Shown: piece after piece, positions 22,728 through 27,916 of the stretch | Layout: the number at the start of each line of letters is the position of its first letter | Position numbering within the stretch: position 1 is the first letter of the stretch | Assembly: GCF_045037415.1 (NCBI RefSeq) | Contig: NZ_CP173438.1 | DNA: 64,000 nucleotides | Origin: Escherichia coli | GTDB lineage: Bacteria; Pseudomonadota; Gammaproteobacteria; Enterobacterales; Enterobacteriaceae | Direction: 5' to 3' (one strand) | Made by a program: the position numbers and the translations under genes | The notes under the pieces: model-generated | Seen by the model: only the letters and a program-made list of their open reading frames with translations | What the model was told of the DNA's origin: nothing | The model's database searches: none

Positions 22728-22803
22728 TGGTGGAGCTATGCGGGATCGAACCGCAGACCTCCTGCGTGCAAAGCAGGCGCTCTCCCAGCTGAGCTATAGC
22801 CCC
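22728..22803 (-). tRNA. tRNA-Ala (TGC), spacer tRNA
   Basis: Reverse complement reads GGGGCTATAGCTCAGCTGGGAGAGCGCCTGCTTTGCACGCAGGAGGTCTGCGGTTCGATCCCGCATAGCTCCACCA. Confidence 0.95.
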
Positions 22804-22845
22804 ATAACATGTAGTTAAAACCTCTTCAAATTTGCGGTGCAAATT

Positions 22846-22922
<77 letters not shown>

Positions 22923-22990: not shown

Positions 22991-24532
<1,542 letters not shown>

Positions 24533-24699: not shown

Positions 24700-24880
24700 G
24701 CGGGGTATACATAATACGCTTTCCCGCTACAGAGTCAAGCATTTTTTTGCTTTCCTCTGTTGAGATTCTCAGGAGAACCCCGCTGACCCGGCGGCGTGTT
24801 TGCCGTTGTTCCGTGTCAGTGGTGGCGCATTATAGGGAGTTATTCCGGCCTGACAAGAGGAAATTTAAAATAATTTTCTG
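24700..24880 (-). promoter_or_regulatory. rRNA operon tandem promoters P1 and P2 with UP element
   Basis: P1: UP element AGAAAATTATTTTAAATTTCCT, -35 TTGTCA, -10 TATAAT, discriminator GCGCCACC; P2: -35 TTGACT, -10 TATTATG (all read on the minus strand). Confidence 0.8.
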
Positions 24881-24901: not shown

Positions 24902-25759
24902 TCAATCTAAAACTGCCAGTTTTTCGAGCGTTTCGAAGCCGTAACGCTGTAAAACGGGCAATAATTGTTCAGCTTCTGGCGTCATTGCCATACAAAATGC
25001 AATATTCGCATCGGCAGATTTTGCATCCGGGGCTTCATGCTCTAACAACCAGGCCGTTCGGCGAGCAATCGCTGCGCCAGAATCCACCAGCCGGGTTCCC
25101 TCTGGCAGCACTTGTAATAGTTCTTCTTGTAGTAGAGGGAAATGGGTGCAACCCAATACAACTGTATCTGGCGGCTCTTTCATTCTTAACCACGGGCGTA
25201 GGATACGTTTTAGCGCATCCAGAGAAACATCTTCGCCATGCAGCTTCGCTTCAGCCAACTCAACCATCTCTGCCGAGCCCAGCATTTCTATCTGGCATTC
25301 ATTAGCGAAACGCGCGATCAGCTCATGAGTATAAGAACGTTTAACAGTTCCGCGGGTTGCCAGTAATCCGACAATGCCATTTGCCGTCAGACGTGCAGCA
25401 GGTTTAATCGCCGGCACGACACCAACAACCGGGAAGTCGAACTTTTCGCGTAATGCAGGAAGTGAAACGGTACTGGCGGTGTTGCAAGCGACCACAGCCA
25501 GCGCAAGGGGATAACGTTCTTGCACTGCGGTGACAATTTCCACCACTCGCTCAACAATAAACACTTCGCTTTTTTCGCCATACGGGAAAGCGACGTTATC
25601 GAAAGCATAAATGTAATGGAGATCCGGCAAGAGATGCCGGATCTCGTCATAGACCGACAACCCACCGACGCCGGAGTCAAACACCAGCACGGTGGGACGT
25701 GGTTCAGAAGGTGTAGCTGCCAGACAAGGTGTATTCCCGTCCTGCAGTTTGGTAGCCAT
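24902..25759 (-). CDS. murI: Glutamate racemase
   Basis: 285 aa; start overlaps the btuB 3' end. Confidence 0.95.
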
Positions 25760-27548
25760 AGACTGTCTCGTAATCTTTGTCGAACAGGTTGGCTATTTTA
25801 CCACGAACTGTCAGGTGAGAGGTGACCGGATATGCAACAGCAAGATCCCACAAGCTCACCCCGCCCATTTTCACTGTTTGATACGGATAAGAGGAGTAAT
25901 CCTTATCATAACGAGAACCTAAGTACTGATAAGTAATCCCCCAGTCGAAGTCATACAACTGCCAGTCGAGCTGGTATTTCACCTGCTGTTTAGCACGGCG
26001 TAACAACGGCGTGTCAGTAATCGCATTGCGCGCATCAACATAATCATAACTCACAGTATGCGTCAGTGGTCCGGTATCAAAATTGGCGGTCGCCTCGACA
26101 CCCTTAATCCGCGCTTTCCCTTCGTTGTAATATTTCAGGGTGTGATCATCATAATCGATCAAGTCACTGACATCGTTACGATATCCGGAAATACGCCAGT
26201 TCACCCCAGCAGTTAAGCCTTCAAACGCGCCTTCCCACTGTTTGCTTTTCTCAGGGTCGAGATTCGGATTTCCGTAGAAACCATACAGTTGTCCAAGATT
26301 TGGTGCCTTATAAGATGTCCCGTAGGAAGCAATAAAGCGATAACCTTCGATAAATTCCCAACCGGCGCTGGTTTGCCAGGTGCCATGACGACCAAACTGT
26401 GAGTTATCGTCGCTACGTGCTGCGCCTTCAAAGGTAAAATCGCCAACTTGTTGCAGCCCGGTCAGATAGATGCCGGTATTACGTTGATCATATCCATCCT
26501 CAACATAAGCTGTGCCCGGTGCCGTGCTCTGCTTCTGCCAGTCAACACCCGCACCAATATTACCGTGGCCAATGATGATGTTGTTTGCCCACTGGACGGT
26601 GTACTGTTTCATCTCATCGAGCGTCGCGGATGAATCATAACGACCATAATGCGGATCGTAGTTGTAATCTTTGCTATGGCTGTAGCTGGTAATCAGTTGT
26701 GATTTAATCAGTTCACCGTTATAGCGCAGTCCGGCATCCCAACTTTGGCTATAGAGTTTACGGGTATCGACCAGTGGCGAGCCGGGAGAATAATATGCGT
26801 CATAATTGGTACGATTATCATAGCCATAGCCGCGCACAAAGCCGCTCCAGACATCAGTAAAATTATGCTCCAGCGCGCCATAAAGCGTTTTACTTAAAAA
26901 ACCATCGTTATCTGGCTGCGCTTGCGTTCCGGTATTACCATAGGCGACAACATCATAACCATGAGTATGGGCATAATCGCCCAACAGCGTTACCCGTGTC
27001 TTATCCCCCAGTTGTTGCTGTGTAGAGACATCATAGTTCTGATAACTATTGCTTCCCCACCCTGCTGAAATTTCCGTTCCGGGGTGATCGCGCGTCGTGA
27101 TGATATTCACGACCCCGCCTATTGCATCTGAACCATAAACAGCGGAGCGCGGCCCACGGATATATTCAACACGCTGGACAAGCGCAATAGGGAACTGACT
27201 AAGATCAGCAGAACCACTCACCCCCGCCAAATTCAGGCGGACGCCATCAATTAACACCAACACATGACTGGCATTTGTACCGCGAATAAAAATAGATGAG
27301 AGCTGACCTGAACCGCCGTTTTGGGTGATATCCACGCCCGGAAGACGGCGCAGCACATCATTGACCGAGGTCGACTGCCAGCGGTCGATATCCTGACGCG
27401 TCACAACAGTAGTTGGCGCAAGCACAGTGCTGCGCGGTTGTTCAAAACGGTTAGCAGTAACGACGAGAGTATCCGGGCTGGTATCCTGTGCCCAAGCGGA
27501 AAATGCCGTGACGGAACACGCCGTCAGCAGCGAAGCTTTTTTAATCAT
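25704..27548 (-). CDS. btuB: TonB-dependent outer-membrane vitamin B12 transporter
   Basis: Track ORF is 629 aa; trimmed to MIKKASLL (614 aa); signal peptide, TonB box DTLVVTA, C-terminal aromatic residue. Confidence 0.95.
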
Positions 27549-27790
27549 TGTAAAGCATCCACAATAGAAGAAGGATGCCGCAGGTTTCATCAATATTACG
27601 CGATGATGAGAACCAGATGCGACGTTGGCCGGCAGGTCTTCGGGCTTGGAGGGGTATCTAAGATACTAAGAGATGATGACTTCCCACCGGATGGCAGTGT
27701 CCGCATAACGCAATCATCGCACCTTTCCTTACCGCTGCGCGTCAGCTCCAGATTCGCACTGGATTCCCTATTAACTCACAGGACCGGCAA
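27549..27790 (-). promoter_or_regulatory. btuB 5' leader containing the cobalamin (AdoCbl) riboswitch
   Basis: About 240-nt leader upstream of btuB; B12-box-like element AAGCCCGAAGACCTGCCGG on the minus strand; boundaries approximate. Confidence 0.75.
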
Positions 27791-27916
27791 GTGGATGCTA
27801 CAGGTTGTAACAAGTTACTGTCCAGACGTAGCTCACAAATAGGAATTCATCAAGATCTGGACATCTGATGAGCAATCCCTACAATCGCCGCGTACTTTAA
27901 TTTTTCAGGATACATC

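Follow-up and report, generated by a model that had tools for sequence, protein, structure and literature searches.

The 56-nt btuB–murI overlap of Escherichia coli is constrained by both reading frames and adjoins a conserved promoter-like stretch

Introduction

On the minus strand of a 64,000-nt stretch of Escherichia coli DNA (hereafter "the window"), the last codons of btuB and the first codons of the essential gene murI appear to be read from the same nucleotides. This raises the question of whether murI truly begins inside btuB and, if so, what restrains change in the shared nucleotides and in those around them. To address this question, we analyzed the geometry of the junction, its conservation across 84 genomes and the pattern of synonymous change on both sides of the overlap.

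Results and discussion

Genomic context of the junction

The minus strand carries, in this order, a cobalamin riboswitch, btuB, murI and an rrn operon. Both coding sequences were identified from their open reading frames and Pfam matches, supplemented for btuB (25704..27548, minus strand; 614 aa, MIKKAS...GSYTF*) by the RefSeq annotation of a 100% identical strain and for murI (24902..25759, minus strand; 285 aa) by a match to PDB 2JFN. The btuB product combines a Plug (PF07715) and a TonB_dep_Rec_b-barrel (PF00593) domain, i.e., it is a TonB-dependent vitamin B12 outer-membrane receptor; its C-terminus reads ...SY[TN]F in the nine genomes compared, and Phe614 is invariant among 79 aligned Enterobacteriaceae. 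The murI product is a glutamate racemase with an Asp_Glu_race domain (PF01177, E = 1e-21) and invariant catalytic residues Cys92 and Cys204 (32 sequences). It is near-identical to PDB 2JFN over residues 1–284, and its AF2 model has a mean pLDDT of 92.5. A 701-bp query across the junction (25400–26100) was 100% identical to several sequenced strains, including E. coli SK1144, and found a match in 5425 of 5426 complete E. coli genomes.

The riboswitch occupies the btuB leader (27614..27803, minus strand; Rfam RF00174, 86.8 bits, also annotated as a riboswitch by RefSeq in the identical strain) and is the source of the B12 repression of btuB. Next to it, btuB codons 1–25 (27474–27548, minus strand) display reduced synonymous change, with 6–9 changes per codon vs 14.5, consistent with the riboswitch expression platform reaching into the coding region. 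At the other end of the locus, the rrn operon lies 3′ of murI, with the 16S gene at 22991–24532 followed by tRNA-Ile, tRNA-Ala, 23S and 5S (all minus strand). Its spacer (22728–22922, minus strand) holds tRNA-Ile/tRNA-Ala where E. coli STEC409 has tRNA-Glu, as does K-12 rrnB. Two sequences in the gap between murI and the 16S gene (24711–24856, minus strand) match the sigma-70 consensus strongly, TTGTCA-16-TATAAT and TTGACT-16-TATTAT; these are presumably P1 and P2 of the rrn operon.

Overlap geometry and its conservation

The out-of-frame overlap (25704..25759, minus strand) spans 56 nt when the btuB stop codon is counted and 53 nt when only sense codons are. It encodes BtuB residues 597–614 plus the stop as well as MurI residues 1–19, and is read such that murI codon position 1 is btuB codon position 2. 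The murI ATG (25759–25757, minus strand) is embedded in the btuB codons Tyr597–Gly598 (T-AT-G-GC), while the btuB stop (25706–25704, minus strand) is a TGA, as in 69 of 80 species, with TAA in the other 11. RefSeq annotates an identical overlap both in the 100% identical strain and in K-12 MG1655 (btuB 4163639–4165483, murI 4165428–4166285). In addition, a benchmarking paper refers to btuB–murI as "well-characterized overlapping ORFs ... which share 56 bp", and both ORFs were called translated by most Ribo-seq tools (PMC8921622).

The conservation of this arrangement was evaluated in 84 genomes from three families: 80 species-level Enterobacteriaceae loci plus Proteus, Serratia odorifera, Xenorhabdus nematophila and Providencia, these four distant genera being reached through distant MurI representatives. 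All 84 genomes have the gene order trmA–btuB–murI, and an ATG at the E. coli position with the btuB stop 56 nt later was found in 80/80 Enterobacteriaceae and 4/4 distant genera. No other start codon is shared by all 84 genomes, and the murI frame crosses the overlap without a stop codon in any of them. Because TAC at Tyr597 would destroy the ATG, the start codon requires TAT at this position. Across a tree of 79 species, this TAT codon indeed underwent 0 synonymous changes, vs at least 2 for each of 22 other conserved Tyr codons (mean of 16). An open alternative frame over 18 codons is in itself not unusual, with a rough chance of (61/64)^18, i.e., ~0.4; what exceeds chance is the conservation of the overlap, not the openness of the second frame.

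In-frame starts upstream of the murI ATG are sporadic. A second in-frame ATG was observed 12 nt upstream in Serratia, Xenorhabdus, Providencia, Proteus and one Escherichia, and arises from TAT instead of TAC at btuB codon 593 (positions 2989–2991 of loci L083, L086, L087 and L088; locus L005). The overlap could be 68 nt long in these genomes (product MR..-M...), if that ATG is used. Separately, the btuB frame is broken upstream of the junction in Intestinirhabdus alba and Citrobacter amalonaticus AUH_CA_2023_1, reflecting either a pseudogene or an assembly error, with the junction and murI unchanged.

Overall, the coordinates and the K-12 annotation agree with the preliminary description of this locus, in which 56 nt were held to be common to the btuB 3′ end and the murI 5′ end in different frames. 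Its view of the overlap as conserved and previously described is likewise borne out, the overlap being fixed in 84/84 genomes and named in PMC8921622. The locus is thus very probably best explained as the genuine, already described btuB–murI overlap of E. coli. The overlap itself is already known, and only the conserved promoter-like stretch just upstream of it is possibly new.

Both reading frames restrict substitution

Variation at the junction was measured as entropy from an alignment of 81 sequences, and as synonymous changes counted by parsimony (Fitch) on a neighbor-joining tree of 79 species. At btuB third positions, which are murI second positions, entropy was 0.13 in the overlap vs 1.29 over the 600 nt before it. 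At murI third positions, which are btuB first positions, it was 0.08 in the overlap vs 1.23 after it. All three codon positions ranged from 0.08 to 0.13 inside the overlap, vs 1.2–1.3 at third positions elsewhere. The parsimony counts followed the same pattern: btuB codons 31–565 and murI codons 61–260 accumulated 14.5 and 20.6 synonymous changes per codon, respectively, and overlap codons about 1, with synonymous change in btuB dropping about ten-fold across the overlap. An alignment across Enterobacteriaceae had been suggested as the check on the earlier claim that changes in the overlap are constrained by both proteins, and here entropy and Fitch counts concur in supporting it. As judged from these aligned sequences, both reading frames restrict substitution, and almost no site of the overlap is free to change.

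The substitutions that do occur are those which one protein tolerates and to which the other is silent or also tolerant. Such tolerated pairs include BtuB Gln600 with MurI Thr3/Lys4, BtuB Thr607 with MurI Thr10/Pro11, and BtuB Arg604, where a silent CGG/CGA exchange accompanies MurI Gly8/Glu. Within Enterobacteriaceae, MurI residues 1–18 change at about the average MurI rate (~2.4 amino acid changes per codon), and BtuB residues 597–614 change at only about a quarter of the BtuB average. In a comparison of E. coli with Proteus, 13 of 18 residues are identical in the BtuB tail and 8 of 19 in the MurI peptide, the latter vs 67% for MurI as a whole. Since the BtuB tail is conserved while the MurI peptide drifts at distance, BtuB is the dominant constraint and the MurI extension the more plastic partner.

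The constrained zone exceeds the overlap: it begins ~50 nt upstream and, in weaker form, continues to about murI codon 50. Its core (25704..25808, minus strand) runs from btuB codon 581 to the stop, with sliding windows at 1.8–3.3 synonymous changes per codon vs ~14.5, and murI codons 21–50 still show only about half the normal synonymous rate. Within this zone of reduced synonymous change, and outside the overlap, murI codons 39–47 include an 11-bp perfect hairpin (25619..25645, minus strand), GAGAUCCGGCA-UCUCU-UGCCGGAUCUC. A 56-nt stretch comprising this hairpin and a 4-bp helix folds with a dG of −24.3 kcal/mol (z −5.3). Nine to 11 of the hairpin pairs are kept in 62/62 distinct Enterobacteriaceae sequences, and two double changes were detected, one converting A-U to G-C via I40V plus GAT to GAC, the other converting C-G to U-A via ATT plus D46N. 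The hairpin is also kept in Serratia (10/11 pairs), and is lost in Proteus and Providencia.

The two peptides encoded by the overlap

Outer-membrane proteins need a C-terminal strand ending in Phe for assembly, and we infer that the BtuB residues encoded by the overlap form this terminal beta-strand. On the MurI side, the alignment with other solved glutamate racemases begins only at about residue 20–26. Homologues at ~50% identity start directly at the core (e.g., MAKVVIFDSG) and have no btuB upstream, and in reduced, endosymbiont-like genomes murI follows argG–argH and carries short unrelated extensions. In the AlphaFold model, pLDDT is <50 for MurI residues 1–13, averages 60 for residues 11–20 and is >90 for the rest. 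The MurI residues encoded by the overlap are an N-terminal extension missing from other glutamate racemases, and this extension is predicted to be disordered.

As to function, the N-terminal ~20 residues of MurI were reportedly linked, by Ho et al. in 1995 and Doublet et al. in 1996, to activation by UDP-MurNAc-L-Ala. The PDB 2JFN chain includes the full 285 aa, but derives from a recombinant construct. Transposon insertions inside the overlap are viable, mainly in one orientation and with a ten-fold bias, and this tolerance indicates that MurI residues 1–19 are not strictly essential in the laboratory (preprint 10.1101/2025.12.01.691526).

Length variation between genomes arises directly after the btuB stop and never inside the overlap. 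The simplest history would be an extension of the murI N-terminus into btuB in an ancestor of Enterobacterales, with a single length kept since then.

A frozen stretch upstream of the murI start codon

In the ~50 nt of btuB before the murI ATG (25760–25808, minus strand), synonymous change is suppressed without dual coding. Across the 79 species, 8 of the 16 codons upstream of the ATG displayed zero synonymous changes, vs 0 of 347 conserved degenerate background codons in both genes. The zero-change codons are btuB codons 581–584 (GTT CGT GGT AAA), 587, 589, 591 and 594. This stretch includes a candidate extended −10 element, TGGTAAAAT (25803–25795, minus strand), 44–36 nt upstream of the ATG in btuB codons Arg582–Ile585. 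The pattern TGnTA(A/G)AAT is invariant in the 84 genomes, including Serratia, Xenorhabdus, Providencia and Proteus. Variation is confined to two of its sites: the "n", where Xenorhabdus has Ala instead of Gly, and hexamer position 3, the least conserved position of the −10 consensus, where Lys is replaced by Arg in several genomes. The two third positions immediately after the block vary freely (12 and 15 changes). The site has the composition of an extended −10 element, i.e., a TGn immediately upstream of a TAnnnT hexamer, and four consecutive codons with zero synonymous changes indicate selection beyond the needs of the protein.

Closer to the start codon, a weak Shine-Dalgarno-like GAGA (25766..25769, minus strand) lies 7–10 nt upstream of the ATG in btuB codons Glu594–Thr595. 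The GAG of codon 594 underwent 0 synonymous changes vs at least 6 for each of 20 other conserved Glu codons, and GAGAC is conserved in 84/84 genomes. Near TGGTAAAAT, no −35 hexamer was recognizable and a simple consensus promoter scan did not flag the site; a match to TGnTAnAAT alone would be expected several times by chance in 64 kb. From its conservation, TGGTAAAAT is likely to represent a murI-specific extended −10 promoter.

The btuB body upstream of this stretch is itself variable in E. coli. In the natural isolate NR3838 (NZ_AP040232.1; locus L095, 505–1202), btuB is a pseudogene that carries an IS1 in opposite orientation 160 nt before the murI ATG, and murI is intact. A mosaic btuB allele of 628 aa, with a body 57% identical in protein, is present in about 370 of 5425 complete E. 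coli genomes; in STEC409 (NZ_CP041422.1; locus L096, 791–2674) it corresponds to about 25860–27490 of the window. The first 60 nt and the last ~100–150 nt of this allele are 97–100% identical to the window allele, and its 3′ breakpoint is located about 100–120 nt upstream of the murI ATG. The NR3838 insertion, the retained 3′ end of the mosaic allele and the orientation bias of transposon insertions in the overlap all speak for the candidate murI promoter. A promoter-like TTATCA-16-TATGAT further upstream (25932–25905) was considered as a required murI promoter and is unlikely to be one, as the IS1 of NR3838 lies inside this site and the mosaic allele replaces it.

We propose, with the chances seeming to us evenly balanced, that the last ~105 nt of btuB are an order-wide frozen expression module for murI, which insulates D-glutamate synthesis and marks a recombination boundary. 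Its parts would be the extended −10 TGnTAxAAT (−44 to −36), a short leader of ~30 nt bearing the weak Shine-Dalgarno, and the murI ATG, all embedded in codons for the BtuB C-terminal strand. The proposed interleaving of promoter, ribosome-binding site, start codon and BtuB C-terminal strand would account for the near-frozen segment. With a murI-specific promoter, expression of the essential racemase would continue while adenosylcobalamin turns btuB off via the riboswitch, and the module would thereby shield D-glutamate synthesis from the repression of btuB by riboswitch, Rho and sRNA. Initiation of murI would occur independently at its ATG via the weak GAGA Shine-Dalgarno and not through termination-reinitiation. 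The module may also mark the limit of recombination in exchanges of the E. coli btuB body for the 57%-identical allele, and the hairpin in murI codons 39–47 might add a further regulatory layer.

Alternative explanations

A very different reading of the junction is that murI starts past btuB, at GTG codon 24 or 26, and that the overlap was annotated only because the longest ORF was chosen. These two in-frame codons (25682..25690, minus strand) are the only conceivable alternative starts: located 13 and 19 nt past the btuB stop, they closely precede the conserved core, near the position where other glutamate racemases begin. A TraDIS preprint (10.1101/2025.12.01.691526) suggests an alternative murI start given the viable insertions in the overlap, and the disorder predicted for the overlap-encoded MurI peptide points in the same direction. 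However, neither GTG is conserved, each being GTG in 59/84 genomes with 13 and 16 independent synonymous changes, respectively, and in 10 of the 84 species the interval from murI codon 2 to the catalytic core lacks ATG, GTG and TTG altogether. The universal ATG, the TAT codon frozen around it and a murI frame uninterrupted across the overlap in every genome all stand against a downstream start, and an untranslated murI frame would leave the ten-fold constraint at btuB third positions unexplained. As for the insertions, their orientation bias fits rescue by a transposon-borne promoter or start, and would fit the loss of a native promoter just upstream followed by such rescue. A murI start downstream of btuB, which the preliminary description had named as the observation that would overturn the overlap, was looked for and did not materialize, and we consider this reading very improbable. 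The pair instead has the properties of true overlapping genes: both frames are open, both products belong to recognizable families, the embedded start is conserved with no conserved alternative outside btuB, and each frame limits synonymous change in the other. At the level of sequence comparison, these data show murI translation to start at the ATG at 25759–25757, 56 nt before the btuB stop.

With murI starting inside btuB, the conservation upstream of the ATG could still reflect something other than a promoter, and a role at the RNA level is the main rival. The 50 nt before the ATG would then act as an A/U-rich site for ribosomal protein S1 or standby binding, or as a structure controlling access to the start on the long btuB–murI mRNA, and the btuB promoter would be the sole source of murI transcripts. 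Such a role would be in line with the unbroken suppression of synonymous change from about −50 through the murI start codon, with the A/U-rich UAAAAU upstream of murI, with a minimum-free-energy fold in which UAGCCA (−36 to −31) pairs with UGGCUA (+1 to +6) and encloses the Shine-Dalgarno, and with the treatment of btuB–murI as a single operon in one paper. However, the 151-nt junction fold does not exceed shuffled sequence in stability (z = −0.12), so that a stable RNA structure spanning the junction is unsupported. Positions −35 and −32 in the 5′ arm of the helix are freely varying ones, and the invariant block matches TGnTAxAAT position by position. In addition, murI is kept where btuB is disrupted by a polar IS1 (one isolate) or has had its body replaced, and we would expect the coupling of an essential gene to a B12-repressed one to be hazardous. 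An RNA-level role is weakened by the unremarkable fold, and we hold it to be possible though rather unlikely. A third gene, i.e., an antisense ORF or sRNA across the junction, is scarcely credible as the source of the extreme nucleotide conservation. Two antisense ORFs of 101 and 76 aa do cross the junction in the window (25520–25825 and 25692–25922, plus strand), but they are interrupted by stops in 47/80 and 69/80 species, respectively, and were rejected as a cause because they are broken in most species; furthermore, Rfam detected no RNA family in the interval from the riboswitch to the 16S gene.

Implications

The overlap already has practical consequences: btuB is not cleanly deletable and hence is missing from the Keio collection, and murI shows up as a false hit in btuB-centered transposon screens (10.1101/2025.12.01.691526). 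The present analysis adds a quantitative demonstration that both frames constrain the 56 nt, and the finding that constraint runs ~50 nt further upstream in a pattern fitting a murI-specific promoter. A real promoter here would account for the continued expression of an essential cell-wall enzyme from downstream of a B12-repressed gene, and btuB engineering (for phage or colicin resistance, or B12 uptake) should then spare at least the last ~120 nt of the gene. The candidate promoter, the murI hairpin and the mosaic btuB are side observations that may already be recorded in databases.

Comparison with known systems

The closest reference is btuB–murI of K-12 MG1655 (murI also dga/glr; b3966/b3967), which has the same geometry, the same ATG and TGA, and an overlap without any difference from the window. 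Between the window MurI and the K-12/2JFN protein, about four residues differ, none of them in the overlap. The window represents another E. coli lineage, in which the downstream rrn spacer contains tRNA-Ile/tRNA-Ala instead of tRNA-Glu.

Bacterial gene overlaps usually measure 1 or 4 nt. The btuB–murI overlap is much longer, is of one constant length across three or more families, and involves an essential downstream gene. It resembles cases of overprinting by an N-terminal extension of the downstream gene, in that a lineage-specific, predicted disordered extension of MurI is laid over an older and more constrained BtuB strand. With gene pairs translated by termination-reinitiation (ATGA or TAATG junctions), btuB–murI shares adjacency, a common strand and a single annotated operon. 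However, the btuB stop is 56 nt downstream of the murI start and neither overlaps it nor lies within a few nucleotides of it; since reinitiation would require a terminating ribosome to backtrack by 56 nt, this mechanism is unlikely for murI.

Finally, a parallel exists for the candidate promoter. The ftsZ promoters of the dcw cluster sit inside ftsA/ddlB, i.e., they are internal promoters for an essential gene. The candidate promoter internal to btuB differs from these in that it is deduced only from synonymous-site conservation. As a sigma-70-type element embedded in btuB, it would likewise free an essential cell-wall gene from its upstream neighbor.
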